From the UHGV virus genome UHGV-2124252: a DNA stretch of 38,108 nucleotides; one strand, written 5' to 3'. Position numbers and translations under genes: made by a program. The first letter of the stretch is position 1, and each line of letters begins with the position of its first letter. This document shows, piece after piece, positions 166 through 34,175 of the stretch. The notes under the pieces are model-generated. The model ran no database searches and had not been told where the DNA came from. It worked only from the letters and a program-made list of their open reading frames with translations. Source of the DNA: a virus.

Positions 166-426
166 TTACCCCTGTTTTCTCAGGCGAGTTTCAAATTCAC
201 CACGCTGCATCACCCGCTGCAATACTTCCGCTTCCAGCTCTGCTAATCGTACCGACCCTAACCGGCGCGGACGGGGGATATCCACCGTCAAATCCAGACC
301 AATTTTTCCCTCTTCAATTAACAACACCCGGTCAGCCATCGCCACCGCTTCGCTCACATCATGCGTCACCAGCAAGACGGTAAAGCCGTGCTCCTGCCAG
401 AGTGATACAATCAAATCCTGCATCTC
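166..426 (-). pseudogene. ssuB: ABC transporter ATP-binding subunit (aliphatic sulfonate SsuB-like), 3' fragment only; 5' part absent because the prophage end abuts it
   Basis: Translation ...(E)[47 protein letters not shown]... is the H-loop/C-terminal part of an ABC ATPase; Walker A/B and signature motif that must precede it are missing; frame breaks at ~427 where phage end sequence starts. Confidence 0.75.
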
Positions 427-428
427 GA

Positions 429-506
429 TGATGCGCCGCGCGATAAATGCACTCTATCTTGTGCGATAAATGGCATCCACGCGGCGTTTCATTATTTGAA
501 AAAGAA
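429..506. repeat. Prophage terminal region with putative transposase-binding repeats
   Basis: Terminal TGATGCGCCGCGCGATAAATGC resembles the Mu attR terminal site as remembered (TGAAGCGGCGCACGAAAAACGC); direct repeats GCGATAAATG at 440-449 and 463-472 and related GCGGCGTTTCA at 481-491, located between host junction and gin stop. Confidence 0.5.
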
Positions 507-1079
507 TTACATTTCAGGTTGCGTTATGACAGTCCCAACAGGGTGATAGCGGTAGATCGTTGACAGTCCAATATCATAGATAATTGCCAGCCGCTTTCTG
601 TCATACCCTTTCTGGAGCAATCTTGCGATCTGCTCATGCTGCTCCTTCGTCAGTTTCGGGCGACGCCCTCCAACTCTTCCTTGTGATCGCGCAGCAGCCA
701 GTCCTGCCAGCGTGCGCTCAACTATCAGTTCACGCTCCATTTCTGCCAGTGCACCCATCATATGAAAAAAGAACCTTCCCATCGGAGTGCTGGTATCGAT
801 TGAATCCGTCAGACTGCGAAAATTGACACCTTTTGCGCGTAGCTCTTCTGTGAGAGCAATGAGGTGTTTCATTCTTCTACCCAACCGATCCAGCTTCCAG
901 ACCACCAATGTATCCCCTCTTTTAAGGCACTTTAAAGCGCGTTTCAGGCCTGGTCGTTCCGACTTGGTTCCGCTCATTTTGTCCTCAAAAATCTGTTCAC
1001 ATCCTGCGCACATTAATGCATTGCGTTGCAAATCTGTGTTTTGGTCATTTGTTGACACACGTATGTAGCCAATCAGCAT
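507..1079 (-). CDS. gin: Serine DNA invertase, Gin/Hin/Cin/Pin family
   Basis: MLIGYIRVSTNDQNTDLQRNAL...GDTLVVWKLDRLGR...FFFHMMGALAEMERELIVERT..., resolvase catalytic Ser motif and C-terminal HTH; ATG at 1079; adjacent to invertible tail-fibre cassettes. Confidence 0.93.
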   Translation of the reverse strand: MLIGYIRVSTNDQNTDLQRNALMCAGCEQIFEDKMSGTKSERPGLKRALKCLKRGDTLVVWKLDRLGRRMKHLIALTEELRAKGVNFRSLTDSIDTSTPMGRFFFHMMGALAEMERELIVERTLAGLAAARSQGRVGGRRPKLTKEQHEQIARLLQKGYDRKRLAIIYDIGLSTIYRYHPVGTVITQPEM

Positions 1080-1133
1080 TAAAAATACTCCCTTTTGAGT
1101 GGTTAAAGTACTGAGATAATGTGGGGAGGATTT

Positions 1134-1159
1134 GAGAGATAAACGTTGGTTTGGGGGAA
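1134..1159 (+). other. gix-like recombination site A (26 bp, 12-2-12)
   Basis: Right half GGTTTGGGGGAA (reverse complement TTCCCCCAAACC fits gix/hix half-site pattern TTnnCnnAAACC), central TT; starts ~150 bp of sequence identical to sites B and C. Confidence 0.55.
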
Positions 1160-1654
1160 GGCTCGGCGCTGCCCGTTGGTGTACCTGTTCCGTGGCCCAC
1201 TGCCACACCGCCAGCAGGCTGGTTAAAGTGCGACGGGCGCGCCTTTACAAAAGAACAATATCCTGTTCTGGCCAGAGCCTACCCGACCCTCCGCCTGCCT
1301 GATTTACGCGGTGAATTTATTCGTGGTTGGGATGATGGGCGAGGGGTTGATACGAGGCGTTCATTGCTAAGTGGTCAGACTGCAACATTTATTCGTACAG
1401 CTTTGCAGGATTATTACGGTGTCGATCTGACTACTAATGTCAAAGTAGGTATCGCTTATGCTACTGCTGATTCTGTTATAACTGTTGGAAACCCTGCTAA
1501 TCCTAAAGCAGGAGATAATAGCGATTATGTTCCAGCATCATCAGATAACTCCATAACAGGCACTCAAAGGACGGCAGAGGATAATTTTACCGGGGCATGG
1601 ATATCAATGCGCCCCCGCAATGTTGCTTTTAATTACATCGTAAGGGCCGCATAA
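1151..1654 (+). CDS. Alternative tail-fibre C-terminal cassette 1 (promoterless, currently not fused to fibre gene)
   Basis: ORF begins inside crossover site, no ATG/RBS; N-terminal 63 aa identical to C-terminal domain start of active fibre (GEGSALPVGVPVPWPTATPPAGWL...), variable middle, conserved end ...RPRNVAFNYIVRAA. Confidence 0.7.
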   Translation: MGEGSALPVGVPVPWPTATPPAGWLKCDGRAFTKEQYPVLARAYPTLRLPDLRGEFIRGWDDGRGVDTRRSLLSGQTATFIRTALQDYYGVDLTTNVKVGIAYATADSVITVGNPANPKAGDNSDYVPASSDNSITGTQRTAEDNFTGAWISMRPRNVAFNYIVRAA

Positions 1655-1673
1655 AAACGTTGGTTTGGGGGAA
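1648..1673 (+). other. gix-like recombination site B
   Basis: Same core as site A (AAACG TT GGTTTGGGGGAA), direct orientation relative to A. Confidence 0.55.
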
Positions 1674-2138
1674 GGCTCGGCGCTGCCCGTTGGTGTACCG
1701 GTTCCATGGCCCACCGCCACACCGCCAGCAGGCTGGTTACAGTGCAACGGAGCTACGTTCACCAAAGAACAATATCCTGTTCTGGCCAGAGTCTACCCGA
1801 CCCTCCGTCTTCCCGATTTACGCGGTGAGTTTATCCGTGGATGGGACGACGGGCGCAAGATTGACGAGGGGCGTAAGTTGCTTTCATGGCAGAAAGGTAC
1901 ACTGGTCGGCGGTCATGACGATAACGATTCTGCGCTTGATATCTCGTACATGAGTAACGGAAATAATATTGACTATGGCGGCGATAAGGTGTTTGCGGGG
2001 AATTACCGTAGCGATTATTTGTGGTACGCAATGCTGGGTGGAACAAACAGTCGCGCAAAAGCCGAATTAAACGGAGCATTCTTTAACATAACCCGCCCCC
2101 GCAATATCGCGTTTAACTATATCGTGAGGGCGGCGTGA
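1665..2138 (+). CDS. Alternative tail-fibre C-terminal cassette 2 (promoterless)
   Basis: Same conserved N-terminal 60 aa and C-terminal ...RPRNIAFNYIVRAA as cassette 1 and the active fibre, different central region. Confidence 0.7.
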   Translation: MGEGSALPVGVPVPWPTATPPAGWLQCNGATFTKEQYPVLARVYPTLRLPDLRGEFIRGWDDGRKIDEGRKLLSWQKGTLVGGHDDNDSALDISYMSNGNNIDYGGDKVFAGNYRSDYLWYAMLGGTNSRAKAELNGAFFNITRPRNIAFNYIVRAA

Positions 2139-2144
2139 TACCGT

Positions 2145-2759
2145 TCAACTGGCAAGTGCCAGTGGCGCTTCCGGCCAGCTGATTTCAGGTGCCGTGCTGA
2201 TATCCAGTGCGTTCAGCTCGTCGATATAATCCAGCACGGCGTTCAGTTTTGCCGTTTCTTCTGGTTTCAGACTGCGACCTGCCCGCAGTTTGAGGTTGAT
2301 GAGGTCGATGGACTTCATCGCCTGATCCACCCGTTTCTGGCGTTGCAGTCTGGCAGTCTCCAGCTCTGCGGTTCGCTGCCGTTCAGTATCGGTTACCCAC
2401 GCCTCACCGTTCCAGGTATCCCATGGCGTGGCTGGCTGTTTTGTGGTGGTGTCCGCCGGGTAATCACCCGGTTGGGTAATCAGAACGGGGTTACCGTTCT
2501 CCGTGCTGTATACCGTCTCGCCGCGGTGATCAGGCACATGCTCCCACCCGTTCAGCGTGGCAGTCCGGCAAACCACGTAACCCGAAATTGCCTCCGGCGG
2601 TGCATCGGCGCACGAATGTGCCGGAGTACCCACCCCAAGGGCGAGATACTCCACAGAGGATGAGGTGTATTCCCGGGTTTCCTCGTCATAGTGATATACA
2701 GTGATCTCGCCCGCTACAGTGGCGATACCGTTTTCATCCAGAACTGCAGTGTTACTCAT
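2145..2759 (-). CDS. Tail fibre assembly protein (Mu U / P2 G / lambda Tfa family)
   Basis: 204 aa, immediately downstream of fibre gene with overlapping TAATG; C-terminal region typical of Tfa chaperones (...KSIDLINLKLRAGRSLKPEETAKLNAVLDYIDELNALDIS...). Confidence 0.8.
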   Translation of the reverse strand: MSNTAVLDENGIATVAGEITVYHYDEETREYTSSSVEYLALGVGTPAHSCADAPPEAISGYVVCRTATLNGWEHVPDHRGETVYSTENGNPVLITQPGDYPADTTTKQPATPWDTWNGEAWVTDTERQRTAELETARLQRQKRVDQAMKSIDLINLKLRAGRSLKPEETAKLNAVLDYIDELNALDISTAPEISWPEAPLALAS

Positions 2760-4282
2760 TAAACTGCCCTCACAATGTAATTAAGTGCAATGCTACGGGG
2801 TCTGACAGTGATACCCTTCGCATACCCGCTTCTGATAGAGGTCAGAATAGTAGCCTGCATACCATTGTCTGACATTGCCACGACAGGATCGCTGAATGTT
2901 GTCCCGTCCGGCATTTTAAAGCTGCCCTCACGAAGGTCTGTAATGGAATCTTCATTGTTGAATCCCATGCCGACTATCCCCGAGGTTCCCGTAGTGTCCT
3001 GGTTATAATAATCCAGCATTGCTGTTCTTAACAGCGTTGCCCCTTGTGCGGACAGCAACTTACGTCCTGTATCAACTTTGCGCCCGTCGTCCCATCCACG
3101 GATAAACTCACCGCGTAAATCGGGAAGACGGAGGGTCGGGTAGGCTCTGGCCAGAACAGGATATTGTTCTTTTGTAAAGGCGCGCCCGTCGCACTTTAAC
3201 CAGCCTGCTGGCGGTGTGGCAGTGGGCCACGGAACAGGTACACCAACGGGCAGCGCCGAGCCTTCCCCCAAACCAAGGTAATTGAGGACATCTTTTATAC
3301 TGCCCTTAGCGATAATAGCGCGACCAATAGCTGTAAGGGTTGCCAGCGCTGCGCGGTCTGCTCCGGTAAAATAAGGCAACCGATCTGCTGCAGTGGCAAG
3401 TCCTGCCAGAGCAGTGAGCGTGGCATCTGCCGGTTGTTTTCCGTTTGCCAGATCGTATGCAGCCTTGACCGCTTTCGGTGTGGCGGCCAGTATTTCAGAC
3501 GTGCTGTTGATGGCACTGCTCAATTGTACGGTGCCTTTTGCCGTCAGCGAGGCAGCAGGCACTCCCGTTATCTGACTCCACGGGTGAGTGTGGCTGACGG
3601 GCGCCTTGCCGGCTGCAAGGTCGTATGCAGCCTTGACCGCCTTCGNNNNNNNNNNNNNNNNNNNNNNNNNNNNNNNAAGGTCGTATGCAGCCTTGACCGC
3701 TTTCGGTGTGGCGGCCAGCGTTTCAGACGTGTTGTTGATGGCACTGCTCAGTTGTACGATCCCTTTACGGGTCGTTGTTGCATCCTGGGCTGTGTATTTT
3801 CCCCGGGCCAGATCATACGCGATTTTCACAGCCTTCGGCGTGGCAGCCTCAGTTTCTGATTGACTGTCCGTGGCGCTGCTCAGTTGTACGGTGCCTTTTG
3901 CCGTCAGTGAAGCCGCAGGCACTCCCGTTATCTGACTCCACGGGTGAGTGTGGCTGGCAGGCGCCTTGCCGGCTGCCAGGTCGTATGCAGCCTTGACCGC
4001 TTTTGGTGTGGCGGCCAGCGTTTCAGAGGTGCTGTTGGTGGCACTGCTCAGTTGGGTGAACCCCTTAGCTGTCAGTGTCGCGTCCGGGTGGTTACGGGAA
4101 CGTACGTGTTCAGCCAGTGACTGTGCGGCTTCCTCCGTTTTCTTCTTCAGCCATTTCGTCCTGTTTGCCAGTTGCCGGGGGGCTCGATTTGATATCCCGT
4201 CTGCACCACCCAGAACCGGATCTGATGTCTCCAGTTGATAGATATTTTCTTCCCACTTTTCTGTTTCATTCAGGTTTCCCAT
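2759..4282 (-). CDS. Tail fibre protein (Mu S / P2 H-like), contains 31-N assembly gap
   Basis: About five tandem ~58-aa repeats (ATPKAVKAAYDL...HTHPWSQITGVPAASLTAKGTVQLSSA...), C-terminal cassette after crossover site C; ATG at 4282 preferred over TTG at 4288. Confidence 0.85.
   Translation of the reverse strand: MGNLNETEKWEENIYQLETSDPVLGGADGISNRAPRQLANRTKWLKKKTEEAAQSLAEHVRSRNHPDATLTAKGFTQLSSATNSTSETLAATPKAVKAAYDLAAGKAPASHTHPWSQITGVPAASLTAKGTVQLSSATDSQSETEAATPKAVKIAYDLARGKYTAQDATTTRKGIVQLSSAINNTSETLAATPKAVKAAYDLXXXXXXXXXXXKAVKAAYDLAAGKAPVSHTHPWSQITGVPAASLTAKGTVQLSSAINSTSEILAATPKAVKAAYDLANGKQPADATLTALAGLATAADRLPYFTGADRAALATLTAIGRAIIAKGSIKDVLNYLGLGEGSALPVGVPVPWPTATPPAGWLKCDGRAFTKEQYPVLARAYPTLRLPDLRGEFIRGWDDGRKVDTGRKLLSAQGATLLRTAMLDYYNQDTTGTSGIVGMGFNNEDSITDLREGSFKMPDGTTFSDPVVAMSDNGMQATILTSIRSGYAKGITVRPRSIALNYIVRAV
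3263..3288 (-). other. gix-like recombination site C (inverted relative to A and B)
   Basis: ttcccccaaacc aa ggtaattgagga on plus strand; lies at the constant/variable boundary of the expressed fibre gene (…LNYLGL|GEGSALP…). Confidence 0.55.
3646..3676. other. Assembly gap (31 N) inside tail-fibre repeat array
   Basis: Run of N flanked on both sides by the same repeat unit (aaggtcgtatgcagccttgaccgc). Confidence 0.95.
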
Positions 4283-4284
4283 AA

Positions 4285-4863
4285 TCAACTGCTCCCGTGG
4301 TTATAACTGCCATCATGGATGGCTGTATTGTTATAGCGAATGGCCACAGACTGATACTCCAGGCTGGCCAGATGGCAGCGGGCCGGTGCAAATGCAGCCA
4401 GCGTCTGACGCAGCATCGCGGCCTGATCGTTAGTAATGGGCTGTTTCAGAATAACGCGATAAACTGCCCAGGCGGCTGCATCTCCATGAACAAACAGTCC
4501 GTTATAGCTGCGATTGCCGTCGTAACTGAGACGACCTGTGCCTTCAATCAGATCCACTTCACCAAAGCCAAAACGGCGGATAACTTCCCGGATTGACCAC
4601 GGCGTCCCTTTATACCGGTGCAGTTCGATGGCTGCTTTTATAAGCATGCGGCGAACATCGTCCGATTCCGCCAGCTCCCAGCCATCGCCAGACAGTGAGA
4701 ACTGCTCGCCCAGCCATGGCAGCGCGGAACTGTCGACGATATCGACGAGAAAGACCATCAGTACGCTCAGGTCGATGTTATCCAGCCGTCCTGCCAGTCT
4801 TCCCAGCGTCCTGAGACTGATATCACCCTCAAGCGGTGGCGGGAGTTGTAATGGCTCAGTCAT
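4285..4863 (-). CDS. Baseplate protein, P2 gpI-like (Mu gp48 position)
   Basis: 192 aa, ATGA overlap with next gene, position between J-like and fibre. Confidence 0.7.
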   Translation of the reverse strand: MTEPLQLPPPLEGDISLRTLGRLAGRLDNIDLSVLMVFLVDIVDSSALPWLGEQFSLSGDGWELAESDDVRRMLIKAAIELHRYKGTPWSIREVIRRFGFGEVDLIEGTGRLSYDGNRSYNGLFVHGDAAAWAVYRVILKQPITNDQAAMLRQTLAAFAPARCHLASLEYQSVAIRYNNTAIHDGSYNHGSS

Positions 4864-6297: not shown

Positions 6298-6351
6298 GGG
6301 GGCAGTATTGCCCCCGTGCGGGAACGCTGATATTAAAGGCGTTTAAAAAGC

Positions 6352-6948
6352 TCAGTGGGAGTGGTGGCTGGAGTTTTCGCCATCAGACAACATACTGCCC
6401 GTGGCATGGGCATTCCCTTTAATCTCGATATTGCCATGGATGGTCGCGGTAACACCTTCACCACCAGAACCCGCCATGCCTCCTTCGTAAATCAGCTTAC
6501 CCCTGACACGCAGATCTCCGGTAAGTTCGGTTTCCGGTGCGTCAATCGTGGCTTTCTGTGTTTTCAATACCACATCAGCACCACACTCAATGACAATATG
6601 CTCAATGCCGCCCCGGATGGTCAGAGTGTGCGTCTTCCGGTTGTAGCTGTACTCTGCACCATCAGCAAACCGGGTTCCCCGGATATTTTTGTCACTGAAC
6701 GGTGGTTTATCGACGTCTGAATACACCGCGCCCAGAATAACACCATCCTCGCCGTTGGCATCGAGCAGCACCTCAACCTGCTCCCCCACGTCAGGGAGCC
6801 AGTAATCTTTGTTATCCTGGGTATTGCGCTGCAGCACGTTAAGCCAGTTTGTGCGCAGGTTATCGCATTCAGGCAGACGAACGCGGGCCTGAACCCTGTC
6901 GGCATCAACGGCACTGACCGTACCGACCTGACGAGTGACACCAGTCAT
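6352..6948 (-). CDS. Baseplate spike / assembly protein V-like
   Basis: 198 aa, N-terminal OB-fold-like region then Gly-rich C-terminal tip (GGMAGSGGEGV) and His-rich end. Confidence 0.7.
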   Translation of the reverse strand: MTGVTRQVGTVSAVDADRVQARVRLPECDNLRTNWLNVLQRNTQDNKDYWLPDVGEQVEVLLDANGEDGVILGAVYSDVDKPPFSDKNIRGTRFADGAEYSYNRKTHTLTIRGGIEHIVIECGADVVLKTQKATIDAPETELTGDLRVRGKLIYEGGMAGSGGEGVTATIHGNIEIKGNAHATGSMLSDGENSSHHSH

Positions 6949-12627: not shown

Positions 12628-12724
12628 GATTGTGCTCCTGTGTAAGTTCAGGGCAGTATGTCGGGAGAAGCGCGTGACGGATATTAAAGGAGATTAAGAA
12701 GAAGGGGCCGGAGCCCCTGTGATG

Positions 12725-19216: not shown

Positions 19217-20038
19217 TTATCCTCTCAGTTCCTGTTGTGCCAGTGGCTGAAGCGTACCCTGATAGCGGGCCAGGTCGGGACGGTATGCTGCCCCCGGTGC
19301 ATAAGACCAGCCGACGTCGGTGGTCACCTTCGTGGTGCCGGTATTAAAGGTGGCCACGTTCCGCATTTCGCCGGTTTTCTCTGAGACCAGTTTCAGTTCC
19401 TGGCCCATGGCAGAGCCGGAGCTGATAACCTTCAGGCCACGGGCACGGACATCCGCCGCACTCAGGGCAATCACACTACAGCGGCAGCGCCAGCCGTTCG
19501 GCGGGTAAAATGCCTGCCAGAACGGGTCATCCCAGCGCAGCACCAGACCATGCAGCGCCAGATGGCTCCTGCGGGTATGGCTGTCGTTGATGCCGGTATA
19601 CATCCAGTACGGCCTGTCGTCGACGTTTTCCATCTGTTCCGCCCAACGACCGGCGCTGTAGAGTACGGACATATTGGTGCGAAAGATGGTATCGAGCCGC
19701 CACGGACTGCCCTGCTGAATGGTGACCGGCTTACCCGTTACCGGGTCAGTCGTGTCACGTGGTCCCCACCATCCCTTACGCTTCAGCACCGGCTCCAGCT
19801 CCTGCCGGAACCAGCGATCGGTTTTTCCTTCATCGACAGCCTGCTGCAGTGCCCCGCGAATATCTTCCAGGATATCCAGGCGGGTCACTTTAGCAACGGT
19901 AAAGGCGCGGGCATGGGCCTCCTGCCACATTTCTTCCCAGTCCCAGGTAATCTGATACCCTTTGGACTTCAGGTAACTGACTGCCCGCTTCGGGGGAAGC
20001 GTCATGCAGTACGCCAGTTCAGCCGTTGTCACGCTCAT
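19217..20038 (-). CDS. Head morphogenesis protein (Mu F / SPP1 gp7 family)
   Basis: C-terminal RxxH...CRC-containing region; start chosen at ATG 20038 with GGGGA RBS. Confidence 0.75.
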   Translation of the reverse strand: MSVTTAELAYCMTLPPKRAVSYLKSKGYQITWDWEEMWQEAHARAFTVAKVTRLDILEDIRGALQQAVDEGKTDRWFRQELEPVLKRKGWWGPRDTTDPVTGKPVTIQQGSPWRLDTIFRTNMSVLYSAGRWAEQMENVDDRPYWMYTGINDSHTRRSHLALHGLVLRWDDPFWQAFYPPNGWRCRCSVIALSAADVRARGLKVISSGSAMGQELKLVSEKTGEMRNVATFNTGTTKVTTDVGWSYAPGAAYRPDLARYQGTLQPLAQQELRG

Positions 20039-27603: not shown

Positions 27604-28368
27604 ATGAAAATGAAGACATTACCCATCGTTCCATGGATTGGTGGCAAACGTCGCCTGGCAAAACACATCCTGCCGCTGTTTCCGGCGCATGAATGTTATG
27701 TGGAGCCGTTTTGTGGGGCAGCAGCGCTCTATTTTCTTAAGACACCCGGCAAGATCGAAGTCATCAATGATATCAACGGTGAACTGGTGAATCTGTACCG
27801 GGTGGTAAAGCATCACCTGGAAGAATTTGTCCGCCAGTTCAAATGGGCGCTGGTCAGCCGTCAGATCTACAAATGGCTGCAGATCACCCCGGAAGAAACA
27901 CTGACGGATATCCAGCGTGCGGCACGGTTCTACTACCTTCAGAAGCAGGCGTTTGGCGGCAAGGTGGCAGAGCACAGCTTCGGTACCTCCACCACATCCC
28001 CGCCACGCTTCAACCTGCTGCGTATTGAAGAAGAACTGTCAGCAGCACACCTGCGGCTTTCCAGAACAGTCATAGAACACATGGACTGGCAACAGTGCAT
28101 TGAGCGTTATGATCGTCCGCACACACTGTTCTACTGCGACCCACCGTACCTGGGTACGGAAGGCTATGGTGTGGATTTTCCTGAAGGGAACTACTCGCGG
28201 CTGGCAGAGCTGGCCCGGTGCATCAGAGGAAAAATGATAATTTCGGTGAACGATATCCCACAGATGCGCGAGGTGTTCACTGGACTGAACATACAGACAG
28301 TGAACATCAACTACAGTCTGGCGGGGAAATCCACGCCGCGCCGTGAACTGGTAATCTGCAACTTCTGA
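27604..28368 (+). CDS. DNA N6-adenine methyltransferase (Dam-like, D12 class)
   Basis: N-terminal AdoMet-binding FCGAAALYF and catalytic DPPY motif. Confidence 0.9.
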   Translation: MKMKTLPIVPWIGGKRRLAKHILPLFPAHECYVEPFCGAAALYFLKTPGKIEVINDINGELVNLYRVVKHHLEEFVRQFKWALVSRQIYKWLQITPEETLTDIQRAARFYYLQKQAFGGKVAEHSFGTSTTSPPRFNLLRIEEELSAAHLRLSRTVIEHMDWQQCIERYDRPHTLFYCDPPYLGTEGYGVDFPEGNYSRLAELARCIRGKMIISVNDIPQMREVFTGLNIQTVNINYSLAGKSTPRRELVICNF

Positions 28369-30398: not shown

Positions 30399-32168
30399 AT
30401 GAATGCTGCCCTGACTGAACGACTGGTTTATGTCGCCCGCGCGGCACGTGACGCGGGGCATGGTAAACGCGGTGCAATATACGACGCTGCCTGTGCTGAA
30501 CTTGGCATGTCCCGCGCCACTCTGCTGCGCAGGCTGAAGGAGGTCTCTGTGACTGATAAACGCAAAAAACGCGCTGATGCCGGACGCAGCGCCCTGACCC
30601 GCGACGAAGCCGCGCTGATATCTGCCACACTGCGTGAGGCCACCCGCAAGAACGGTAAACGCCTCTATTCCATCGCAGATGCAGTGGAAACCCTGCGGGC
30701 TAACGGCTTTATCACCGCAGGCAGAACAGATGAAACCACCGGTGAGTTTTTCCCGTTGTCTGAAGATGCCATCAGCCGTGCTCTGCGTAACTATGGCCTG
30801 CACCCGGAACAACTGGATGCTCCTGCACCGCATACCGAAGTGGCCAGTCTGCACCCCAATCATGTCTGGCAGATTGACGCCTCACTCTGCACGCTTTACT
30901 ACCTGAGCAATGGACATAAAGGGCTGCAGGTGATGGACAGCGCGAAGTTCTACAAGAACAAGCCCGCTAACCTTGCCCGTATCGCCAGTGACCGCGTGTG
31001 GAGTTACGAGATTACCGACCATGCCAGCGGCTGGATTTACGTTGAGTATGTGACGGGCGCGGAATCAGGTGAGAACCTGTGTTCTGTGCTTATCAACGCC
31101 ATGCAGGAGCGTGGCGGCGCAGACGTGCTGCACGGCGTGCCAAAAATACTCTATCTCGACCCCGGCTCGGCAAACACCGCGGGTATGACGAAAAACATGT
31201 GCCGCTCACTGGGCATCGACCTGATAGCGCACAAGCCGCATAACGCCCGCGCCACCGGACAGGTGGAAAAGGCGCGGGACATTATCGAACGCAAGCTGGA
31301 GCCGGGTCTGAAGTTCCGGCCGGTTCACAGTCTGGAAGAACTCAATGCGCTGGCCGCGAAATGGCGCAGCCACTTTAACGCCACGGCTGTTCACAGCCGC
31401 CACGGTAAAACCCGCACGGATATCTGGCTGAAGATTACTGCTGAGCAGCTGAAAAAAGCGCCTTCCGTTGAGGTATGTCGTGAACTGGCTGTGGCGGCAC
31501 CAGAACTCCGCAAAGTCACGCCAAAACTTCGTGTCTCGTTCCGGGGCACTGAATTTGACGTATCAACGGTACCGGGCGTACTGGTCGGTGAAAAACTGAT
31601 GATTACCCGTAACCCGTGGCGCAGCGATGTGGCACAGGTGGTTCTGACCGGTGAGGACGGCCACGAGACGTTCTTCCTGGTCGAAGAAGTCAGAAAGAAC
31701 GAGTTTGGCTTTGCTGAAGGCGCGGCGGTATTTGGCGAAAGTTACAAAGCCCTGCCGGAAACCCCGGCGCAGATGGCGGCAAAAGAAACCGAAGCGCTGG
31801 TCACCGGTACAGACAACGCCGCAGATGCAGCTGCCGCACGCAAGGCGAAGGCGCTGCCGTTCGGCGGGCGGCTTGACCCATATAAACATATTGATGACGC
31901 CACACTTCCGGCCTATATGCCGAAGCGAGGTCAGGCCTCTGACGTACGCGGGCCGCGCACTGAACAACGTCCCATGACTCATGTGGAGGCCGCGAAAGCC
32001 CTGCGCGATAAGTTCAGCGCCGACGGCCTTACCTGGACGCCGGAACATTACCGCCAGTTAACGGCACAGTATCCGGACGGCGTACCGGAAGCCGCACTGG
32101 ATGAAGTCATGGCCACGCTGACCACGCCGGCCCGCAGCAGCGTTATCAGCATTGTTAACGGCAACTGA
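30399..32168 (+). CDS. DDE transposase A (Mu A / TnsB / TniA family core)
   Basis: 589 aa; N-terminal HTH, catalytic core beginning HVWQIDAS; followed by ATPase partner gene. Confidence 0.88.
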   Translation: MNAALTERLVYVARAARDAGHGKRGAIYDAACAELGMSRATLLRRLKEVSVTDKRKKRADAGRSALTRDEAALISATLREATRKNGKRLYSIADAVETLRANGFITAGRTDETTGEFFPLSEDAISRALRNYGLHPEQLDAPAPHTEVASLHPNHVWQIDASLCTLYYLSNGHKGLQVMDSAKFYKNKPANLARIASDRVWSYEITDHASGWIYVEYVTGAESGENLCSVLINAMQERGGADVLHGVPKILYLDPGSANTAGMTKNMCRSLGIDLIAHKPHNARATGQVEKARDIIERKLEPGLKFRPVHSLEELNALAAKWRSHFNATAVHSRHGKTRTDIWLKITAEQLKKAPSVEVCRELAVAAPELRKVTPKLRVSFRGTEFDVSTVPGVLVGEKLMITRNPWRSDVAQVVLTGEDGHETFFLVEEVRKNEFGFAEGAAVFGESYKALPETPAQMAAKETEALVTGTDNAADAAAARKAKALPFGGRLDPYKHIDDATLPAYMPKRGQASDVRGPRTEQRPMTHVEAAKALRDKFSADGLTWTPEHYRQLTAQYPDGVPEAALDEVMATLTTPARSSVISIVNGN

Positions 32169-32178
32169 GGAGGGATAC

Positions 32179-33345
32179 ATGCTGGTACTGAAGCAGCAAC
32201 TGAAAGAGGCCCGTATTCCACAGGCGGTGGTGGCGAGAGCTGTCGATGTTTCTGAGGCCACGCTGGCCCAGATTGTGAATCATAACGCGTGGCCCCGCAC
32301 CAGCCCCGGAGAAGTGCGCCGGCGTCTTGCGTCCTGGCTGGAAAGTCAGGGGATTGATACAACGAAGAGTTTTGATGCTGTACAGGGCGCAGCCACGCCC
32401 CGTACAGCGGGTACCACAGATAAAACGAGCCTCAGTGAGGAAGAGAATATGTTACTCAAAAAACAGGTGTTATTTCCAGCAACCAAAAAAGCGTTTGGTC
32501 TTTTCCGTGACCCGTTCGCCGATGAAGCCATGCAGGGTTCTGATGATGTGTTCACCACCCCGGACATTCGCTACGTGCGTGAGGCGTTGTACCAGACAGC
32601 CCGTCATGGTGGGTTTATGGCCGTCATCGGTGAGTCCGGTGCGGGTAAATCCACGCTGCGCCGCGACCTGACTGAACGTATCAACCGCGAGAATGCGCCG
32701 GTAATTGTTATCGAGCCATACATCATCGCTATGGAAGACAACGATGTGAAAGGGAAAACCCTGAAGGCAGCAGCGATTGCCGAAGCCATTATCAGTACCA
32801 TCGCACCACTGGAAAGCATCAGACGCAGTCAGGACGCCCGCTTTCGCCAGTTGCATCGCGTCCTGAAAGACAGCAGCCAGGCGGGGTTCAGCCACGTTTT
32901 GGTGATTGAGGAGGCCCACAGTCTGCCCATTCCGACACTGAAACACCTCAAACGCTTTTTTGAGCTGGAGTCCGGTTTCAAAAAACTGCTGTCCATCGTG
33001 CTGATTGGCCAGCCGGAACTGGCGACAAAACTGTCTGAACGCAATATGGAAGTCCGTGAAGTCGTTCAGCGTTGTGAGGTGGTCGAACTTCTGCCTCTGG
33101 ACAATAACCTTGAAGAATTTCTGACGTTCAAACTGCAACGGGCCGGTAAACAACTGACGGACATTATGGACGCCAGCGCAGTGGATGCCATACGTGCCCG
33201 CCTGAGCAATCCGGGAAGTCATCGTAAAAATATGGTCAGCCTGCTGTATCCGCTGGCCGTCAGTAACCTGGTGATAGCCGCCATGAATCTGGCCGCTGAA
33301 ATCGGGGTTCCACAGGTCAACGCTGACGTTGTCAAAGGGGTTTAA
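32179..33345 (+). CDS. Transposition ATPase B (Mu B / TniB-like AAA+)
   Basis: Walker A GESGAGKST, Walker B-like HVLVIEEAH; start ATG 32179 with GAGGAGGG RBS. Confidence 0.85.
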   Translation: MLVLKQQLKEARIPQAVVARAVDVSEATLAQIVNHNAWPRTSPGEVRRRLASWLESQGIDTTKSFDAVQGAATPRTAGTTDKTSLSEEENMLLKKQVLFPATKKAFGLFRDPFADEAMQGSDDVFTTPDIRYVREALYQTARHGGFMAVIGESGAGKSTLRRDLTERINRENAPVIVIEPYIIAMEDNDVKGKTLKAAAIAEAIISTIAPLESIRRSQDARFRQLHRVLKDSSQAGFSHVLVIEEAHSLPIPTLKHLKRFFELESGFKKLLSIVLIGQPELATKLSERNMEVREVVQRCEVVELLPLDNNLEEFLTFKLQRAGKQLTDIMDASAVDAIRARLSNPGSHRKNMVSLLYPLAVSNLVIAAMNLAAEIGVPQVNADVVKGV

Positions 33346-33644: not shown

Positions 33645-34175
33645 ATGGCAAAAAGTACAAAAGGGGCAAAACGTATCAAAGCCGCAGCAGCACTCTGGGT
33701 GCCGGGGACACGCGAAGAGGTCATTGAGGGAATCAGACTGCTTGGTGACGCGCAACGTGAACTGGTCAGGGCTGAAACAGAAATGAATGACACCATTGGC
33801 GACATCACTGCACGTTATGCCCCGCTCACCGAGAGCCTGAAAAAACGCATGACCGAACTGCAGTCCGGTATCCAGACATGGTGTGAGGCGCACCGTGATG
33901 AACTGACCGGCAACGGGAAGGTGAAGTTCGCTAACCTCACCACCGGCGAGGTGCAGTGGCGAAACCGTCCGCCGTCAGTCAGCATTCGCGGGGCGGATAA
34001 TGTCATTGAACTGCTGAGACGTCTGGGGCTTGAGCGCTTTATTCGTGTAAAGGAGGAAATAAATAAAGATGCCATTCTGAATGAAAAAGAGGCTGTGAAA
34101 AATATTCCCGGTATTACCATAAAAAGTGATATTGAGGATTTTTCAATAATTCCTTTTGAGCAGGATGTGCAGTAA
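33645..34175 (+). CDS. gam: Host-nuclease inhibitor Gam (Mu Gam-like)
   Basis: MAKSTKGAKRIKAAAALWVP... and C-terminal ...DFSIIPFEQ closely resemble Mu Gam as remembered. Confidence 0.85.
   Translation: MAKSTKGAKRIKAAAALWVPGTREEVIEGIRLLGDAQRELVRAETEMNDTIGDITARYAPLTESLKKRMTELQSGIQTWCEAHRDELTGNGKVKFANLTTGEVQWRNRPPSVSIRGADNVIELLRRLGLERFIRVKEEINKDAILNEKEAVKNIPGITIKSDIEDFSIIPFEQDVQ

Follow-up and report, generated by a model that had tools for sequence, protein, structure and literature searches.

The 38,108-nucleotide virus genome UHGV-2124252 (referred to here as the window, meaning the whole stretch of DNA that was analyzed) is a Mu-like transposable prophage of Escherichia coli, and its tail-fiber locus is a Gin-family multiple-inversion switch. 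Three crossover sites connect one constant N-terminal fiber part with three alternative C-terminal cassettes, and a single tail-fiber assembly gene, tfa, is present for all of them. Four arrangements of the locus follow from the allowed inversions, and all four were found in natural genomes; taken alone, this anatomy and the four-isomer switch are almost certain. In some of these arrangements tfa is antisense to the fiber gene. Our preferred reading of this architecture is that Tfa is a generic chaperone for functional tips of the Collar type and that it is supplied regardless of the orientation of its gene. We hold this statement as a whole, expression route included, with slightly less than even confidence.

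An invertible tail-fiber locus with a single tfa

The invertase gene lies on the minus strand at 507..1079, with its ATG at 1079, and encodes a serine DNA invertase of 190 residues with Pfam Resolvase (2.2e-50) and HTH_7 (1.3e-12) domains, the latter a helix-turn-helix (HTH). Residues 1-181 match the solved Mu Gin structures 4M6F and 3UJ3 at E = 8e-94, and at the DNA level the gene is 73% identical to Mu gin across 433 nt. Three crossover sites of 26 bp were identified. Site A, proximal to the invertase, reads GAGAGATAAACG TT GGTTTGGGGGAA (1134-1159, plus strand) and stands at the end of a 226-bp repeat; site B reads CGCATAAAAACG TT GGTTTGGGGGAA (1648-1673, plus strand) and includes the stop codon of cassette 1; and site C reads TCCTCAATTACC TT GGTTTGGGGGAA (3263-3288, minus strand) and lies inside the fiber open reading frame (ORF), at ...NYL|GLGEGS.... 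Common to all three are the right half GGTTTGGGGGAA, which is identical to the right half of Mu gix at 9 of 12 bases, and the central dinucleotide TT. Sites A and B point the same way, and C points the opposite way. Since site C is within the fiber reading frame, recombination exchanges the last ∼160-175 residues of the protein. The locus has several of the features that define the Gin/Hin/Cin/Pin (Din) systems, namely a recombinase with resolvase and HTH domains, 26-bp sites with an identical core, and inverted partners. A shufflon of the R64 type (tyrosine recombinase Rci, sfx sites, pilV) was ruled out, because the enzyme here is a serine invertase and its target is a phage fiber gene.

The tail-fiber gene (2759-4288, minus strand) encodes Phage_fiber_2 repeats followed by a C-terminal Pfam Collar domain. 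Its constant N-terminal part, termed Sc, spans 3277..4288 on the minus strand and holds the Phage_fiber_2 repeats. Fused to Sc is the current tip, cassette 3 (2759..3276, minus strand; Pfam Collar 9e-16), which is linked to tfa. The two silent cassettes are on the plus strand and are promoterless: cassette 1 (1148..1654, ORF 1151-1654; Pfam Collar 1.8e-16) is free and stands alone on a segment that we call X, and cassette 2 (1662..2138, ORF 1665-2138; Pfam Collar 1.4e-15) is on a second segment, Y. The 5′ regions of the cassettes are repeats of 226-229 bp that are 90-92% identical; two of them, at 1143 and 1657, share one orientation, the copy ending at 3279 has the opposite one, and a hix/gix-like 26-bp site is found at the outer end of each. 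Within the Phage_fiber_2 repeats of Sc there is a run of 31 N (3646-3676), flanked by four direct repeats of ∼111 nt (3450-4088); this run is probably an assembly gap or the masking of a repetitive stretch.

An earlier note on this DNA, made from the letters alone, had pointed to three intact frames with a common C-terminal motif. This was confirmed, as the Collar domain (PF07484) is present in all three cassettes, their frames are intact, and the motifs read RPRNVAFNYIVRAA in cassette 1 and RPRNIAFNYIVRAA in cassette 2, with RPRSIALNYIVRAV as the third motif quoted. Each cassette is built like the tip of T4 gp37: a variable, receptor-binding insert stands between a collar N-part and a C-terminal strand, RPRNIAFNYIVRA, the conserved parts being that N-part and the final 14 residues. 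Among solved tips the closest is also that of T4 gp37 (2XGF), which aligns with the collar and with the last strand, NIAFNYIVR, although that strand is low-scoring when taken alone. In 2XGF the chain turns back there, placing both ends together at the collar. In many cassette types of the related loci described below, an HxH motif stands just past the collar and resembles the HxH repeats that bind iron in the needle of T4 gp37; no HxH motif follows the collar in the three cassettes of the window.

The tfa gene (2145-2759, minus strand) encodes a protein of 204 residues with a Caudo_TAP domain (PF02413; 6.9e-27, residues 79-199), 61.5% identical to the Tfa of HK97. Its ATG overlaps the fiber stop codon (TAATG) and is preceded, at a distance of 7 nt, by a GAGGG Shine-Dalgarno sequence, and its own stop codon is separated from that of cassette 2 by 6 nt. 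The usual position of a Caudo_TAP gene, directly downstream of the fiber gene, is therefore occupied with respect to cassette 3 only. The ORFs, domains, and sites together agree with the earlier note that there is one tfa and that it lies inside the invertible segment, beside the active cassette. The note had added that the alternative cassettes have no chaperone gene of their own, and a tblastn search with Tfa over the whole 38-kb window indeed returned no second tfa, only tfa itself (next match, E = 0.32). When genome contigs were searched with Tfa, one short contig was recovered. We also considered an ORF antisense to tfa (2343-2663, plus strand) as an alternative chaperone. Its frame is open over 172 codons in the tfa family of the window, and the candidate was rejected because, in most single-tfa families that are more distant, just 38-63 codons are open.

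All four isomers occur in E. coli genomes

Three sites divide the locus into segment X, with cassette 1, and segment Y, with cassette 2, tfa, and cassette 3, and the inversions are 2,131 and 1,617 bp long. Four isomers were built in silico from the allowed inversions and then searched for in complete E. coli genomes. In S0, the state of the window, Sc is joined to cassette 3 and followed by tfa in sense. Sc is joined to cassette 2 in S1, with tfa antisense, and to cassette 1 in S2, where cassette 2 follows in sense and then tfa in antisense. In S3, reached by inversion between B and C and then between A and C, Sc is again joined to cassette 1, now followed by the body of cassette 3 and by tfa in sense. 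The earlier proposal that either inversion would leave tfa antisense therefore stands for single inversions from the state of the window, but it is incomplete, as S3 combines cassette 1 with a sense tfa. Cassette 2 and tfa converge on the same segment, Y, and move together, so that cassette 2 is never co-oriented with tfa.

Each of the four isomers was met as one piece, at 100% coverage and 99.8% identity. As all four occur in near-identical prophages, the switch is active in nature. Isolates with paired names, in which the array had matching or adjacent coordinates, were moreover in different states: p11B was in S0 and p11A in S2 at the same coordinates, S21EC was in S0 and S22EC in S2, and C7 was in S0 and C9 in S1.

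We then relied on junction-specific queries, which resolve the split between individual isomer states only in part. The junction from cassette 1 to cassette 2 was present in 85 genomes and that from cassette 1 to cassette 3 in 54, for a sum of 139 cassette-1-bearing arrays. Among these, 71 (51%) had the Sc-cassette 1 junction, in agreement with the 50% expected from a four-state equilibrium. The Sc-cassette 2 junction was found in natural genomes at 100% identity, in 87 genomes altogether. This is more than the cassette 1-to-cassette 3 count permits, so the number probably takes in two-cassette arrays without cassette 1. One such array is found in the phage record CP025887.1 (8571-10907), which has the same array without cassette 1 and is 514 bp shorter, the exact spacing from A to B; this spacing identifies it as the product of a deletion between A and B, two sites in direct orientation. 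In E. coli, arrays of this kind with two cassettes are probably common. Isomer counts obtained with 2,851-nt synthetic queries (186, 184, 230, and 207 genomes) were discarded as unreliable, since a P88-like prophage shares modules at ∼99% and distinct isomers reach ∼80% mutual coverage.

In this P88/P2-like prophage, located beside serC-aroA in ST131 (loci L002, L008, L015, and L016), four parts of the stretch 507-3480 of the window recur at ∼98-99% identity, namely gin, tfa, cassette 3, and the final ∼200 nt of Sc; the other two cassettes of that prophage differ. Judged by this near identity, the fiber-tip module is exchanged between unrelated prophages.

Related arrays carry one tfa for many cassettes

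The comparison was extended to 80 IMG/VR loci with invertases 82-100% identical to that of the window, in which invertase, tfa, and Collar cassettes were annotated by profile searches. Thirty of the arrays were complete, in that both a long fiber gene and the invertase were included. A single tfa of ∼200 residues together with two to six Collar cassettes was found in 20 of the 30, and in these tfa was sense to the fiber gene in 13 and antisense in 7. Another nine had one Collar cassette and a second, unrelated small tfa (139-162 residues); in Klebsiella phage Kp4845-2, the one locus read in detail, the small tfa adjoins a non-Collar cassette. One complete array had two tfa-bearing segments, an arrangement seen in L060, and none of the 30 was without tfa. 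In every array, tfa stands directly after one cassette and is convergent on another. As a rule, tfa seems to be present once for each type of tip and not once for each tip.

Several other loci vary this plan. The contig-truncated loci L025, L031, and L044 have 9-10 Collar cassettes and a single tfa. In L080 (5509-6998), three Collar cassettes stand beside an invertase with neither a tfa nor a long fiber ORF, and in L014 and L023 invertase genes flank the array on both sides. The spacers between gin and the neighboring site, compared between single-tfa and two-tfa arrays, were of several types, and no inward-facing promoter feature set the two groups apart.

Tfa looks generic and the alternative cassettes look functional

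By their variable part, 206 cassettes fell into 38 types, and a given type was met in different positions relative to tfa. Type 0 was linked to tfa in 2 cases, free in 8, and convergent in 18; type 3 was linked in 9, free in 7, and convergent in 1; and the type of cassette 2 was linked in 1, free in 1, and convergent in 6. Among 49 distinct tfa-cassette pairs there were 17 comparisons in which the Tfa N-domains were at least 90% identical and the linked cassettes less than 35% identical in the variable part. Over the same pairs, the Tfa N-domain followed cassette identity no more closely (r = 0.62) than the C-domain (0.59). Tips like cassette 1 are found in two other phages, the lytic YerA41 and the Burkholderia phage Mica, in each case with a tfa directly downstream. 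T4 gp37 requires gp38, and Montag and Henning reportedly found in 1987 that lambda Tfa can stand in for T4 gp38. Taken together, these data suggest that Tfa looks generic for Collar-type tips, and we infer that it plausibly recognizes the conserved collar region.

The alternative cassettes in turn look functional, as far as their sequence tells. Of 39 convergent cassettes, 35 are full length and carry the terminal motif, and contig ends or trimming appear to account for the shorter ones. The ratio of nonsynonymous to synonymous polymorphism (pN/pS) in the variable part was 0.17 for convergent cassettes (pS 0.18), 0.23 for free ones, and 0.24 for linked ones, values that come from non-independent pairwise comparisons and are indicative only. 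For the types present in the window, with convergent, free, and linked copies pooled, the type of cassette 1 had a ratio of 0.34 and that of cassette 2 a ratio of 0.225. By this measure the convergent cassettes, which are never co-oriented with tfa, are under purifying selection, and the argument of the earlier note against decay is borne out. If Tfa is generic and the alternatives are functional, Tfa is needed whatever the orientation of its gene.

Supply of Tfa in the antisense states

We propose that the single Tfa would act as a generic chaperone on all Collar-type tips. It would probably recognize the parts that the tips share, the collar and the C-terminal strand, rather than the insert that varies, and one gene would thus suffice for 2 to 10 cassettes. 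Transcription of tfa would be independent of the late fiber operon, from a promoter in the linked cassette or at the invertase-proximal border, and translation would then begin at the Shine-Dalgarno sequence of tfa itself. Among the options that the earlier note had listed (alternatives that fold without Tfa, Tfa expressed from the other strand after inversion, or non-functional alternatives), expression from the other strand remains the most likely, although no promoter for it was detected.

The promoter search is the main difficulty for this proposal. A sigma-70 scan of positions 400-4500 returned a single site where 2.2 were expected, and it lies neither upstream of tfa nor at the invertase border. 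Ogr-type sites, as in P2 late promoters (TGT-N12-ACA), had no consistent position upstream of tfa across 53 distinct loci. The motif CCTTTAATATC, a candidate late element described with the prophage below, does not occur below position 4600 even when 2 mismatches are allowed. The only promoter candidate is TGAGATAAT (1112-1120, plus strand), an extended -10-like sequence that faces the invertible segment, ends 13 nt short of site A, and overlaps the probable -10 (CATTAT) of the gin promoter on the opposite strand. In Mu, furthermore, the expression of U and U′ depends on the orientation of the G segment, and an orientation-independent tfa would depart from that model. All of these points weigh against operon-independent expression. 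That tfa is independent of the late operon in the whole class of fiber shufflons, through a promoter in the invertible segment or a bidirectional one at the invertase border, is conceivable but doubtful. In a variant of the operon-independent reading, the four isomers may represent four phenotypes, with cassette 1 being made with or without co-transcribed Tfa.

It could instead be that Collar-type tips fold without Tfa, which would then be dispensable or would serve only the linked cassette, for example by staying on that tip. No new promoter would be required, and there are precedents: the T4 short fiber gp12, the founding Collar-domain protein, is generally known to need gp57A and no gp38-type chaperone, and in phage Mica no tfa is found directly downstream of gp19 (Pfam Collar in the record) and the adjacent tail protein gp18. 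However, at least one tfa is kept in 30 of 30 complete arrays, and cassettes of the same type, free or convergent here, have tfa linked to them in other phages (type 0 and type 3). Because complete arrays retain tfa and cassette types change roles between phages, this option of the earlier note is weakened, and we consider it unlikely. The lack of any specific co-variation of Tfa with its linked cassette also speaks against it, as does the gp37 tip, the nearest homologue with a solved structure, which shares the C-terminal strand and depends on gp38.

Tfa might also be provided in trans in the induced cell, either by sister copies that have flipped to a tfa-sense state or by a co-resident prophage with a near-identical tfa. 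On the late strand, gin comes directly after the array, with no terminator-like site between tfa and gin, and late read-through would raise inversion. The P88/P2-like prophage of ST131 has, on an invertible segment of its own, a tfa whose N-domain is ∼98-99% and whose C-domain is ∼92% identical. Against this, inversion in Mu is generally known to be negligible during lytic growth, and the mixing of isomers in one cell would uncouple genotype from fiber phenotype and risk mixed trimers. Reliance on another prophage, moreover, cannot account for an architecture that is spread over many phage lineages. The phage FRphi bears on both sides of the question, since its virion DNA has the same isomer mix as the chromosome but a gin-deleted, locked state is infectious, the relation of the locked cassette to tfa not being stated in that paper (PMC13418256). 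We regard supply in trans as quite unlikely.

That the tfa-antisense isomers are dead ends, which would yield particles without functional fibers and leave cassette 2 never used, is the simplest reading under Mu-style operon logic and fits the finding that only one of three locked FRphi isoforms infected the test host (PMC13418256), but it is very improbable because the cassettes are under purifying selection: 35 of the 39 convergent cassettes are intact, their constraint is as strong as that of linked ones, and every tfa-bearing segment in the related arrays has kept a convergent partner cassette, so the earlier option of non-functional alternatives is disfavored.

The host prophage

The Mu-like character of the element is seen in its rve transposase (30399-32168), AAA+ B-like ATPase (32152-33345), Gam (33645-34175), Mu portal, and Mu gp27, and it also encodes baseplate and sheath genes of the P2/Mu type. 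Its early genes are on the plus strand and its late genes on the minus strand. The insertion site of the prophage is in ssuB; a truncated remnant of this gene is found at 166-423. Between the late and early regions lies a gene for a D12-class N6-adenine DNA methyltransferase (27604-28368, plus strand).

The candidate late motif CCTTTAATATC occurs in the window as 2 exact copies and 2 copies with one mismatch, compared to 0.36 expected. The copies are at 6329-6339, 12680-12690, and 19340-19350 on the minus strand and at 6416-6426 on the plus strand. Both exact copies are in short gaps upstream of late genes, and the motif is a candidate late-promoter element of the phage.

Comparison with known systems

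Inversion-driven fiber switching is textbook host-range bet-hedging by phages, and in the textbook cases each tip travels with its own chaperone. The closest model is the G segment of Mu with Gin (as also the P1 C segment with Cin and the e14 P segment with Pin), where 26-bp sites likewise lie inside the fiber ORF and inversion swaps the C-terminal tip. As in Mu, gin is just outside the segment and is read away from it, and the host element here is itself Mu-like. Mu differs in that it has only two sites, and both of its two cassettes come with a tfa of their own (S-U and U′-S′), compared to three sites, three cassettes, and one tfa here. BLASTP comparisons of Tfa and the fiber C-terminal part with Mu S, U, U′, and S′ gave no match at E <= 1; the only similarity to Mu S that was seen is a Phage_fiber_2 repeat in the constant part, the tip here being of the T4-gp37/Collar type. 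T4 gp37/gp38 and lambda/HK97 Stf/Tfa are unlike this locus in another way, as one fixed tip is followed by its chaperone in sense and there is no inversion.

Systems with more than two sites are known as well. The Min system of p15B, which is older, has a Din-family invertase and six crossover sites, and it shuffles the 3′ ends of a P1-type tail-fiber gene; p15B is a P1-like plasmid prophage, in contrast to the Mu-like phage here. In a P2-like prophage of enteropathogenic E. coli (EPEC) E2348/69, three partly homologous inverted repeats support two overlapping inversions of ∼2,200 and 1,800 bp (Goldberg et al. 2014, PMC4272514). Four coexisting variants of this shufflon were shown by PCR, each convertible into two others (PMC4272514). 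The EPEC shufflon is thus like the present locus in its three repeats and four variants, and unlike it in the type of prophage; cassettes and tfa are not described in PMC4272514.

In FRphi of Enterobacter sp. BIDMC93, three C-terminal isoforms are swapped by Gin, with a usage of ∼50/25/25 (Walker, Richard et al. 2026, PMC13418256), which matches the share of 71/139 arrays with the Sc-cassette 1 junction here. Related loci with up to six paralogs were reported in the same work (PMC13418256), fewer than the 9-10 cassettes of the truncated arrays described above. FRphi is unlike our element in its lambda-like immunity region, and PMC13418256 makes no mention of a tail-fiber assembly gene or of a tfa-linked isoform. 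No FRphi-like locus was present among the 80 related loci. That only a single locked isoform of FRphi is infectious may reflect a missing chaperone supply rather than a missing receptor.

The literature that we found on three-site, four-variant fiber shufflons does not mention a tail-fiber assembly gene. The arrays described here break the rule that each tip comes with its own chaperone, as they hold one chaperone gene for 2 to 10 tips, often antisense to the fiber gene. If Tfa is indeed generic and its supply independent of orientation, the engineering of phages and tailocins with swappable tips would be simpler. The locus as such belongs to a kind of system that is already known, and the single-tfa problem is a real and general gap within that kind.

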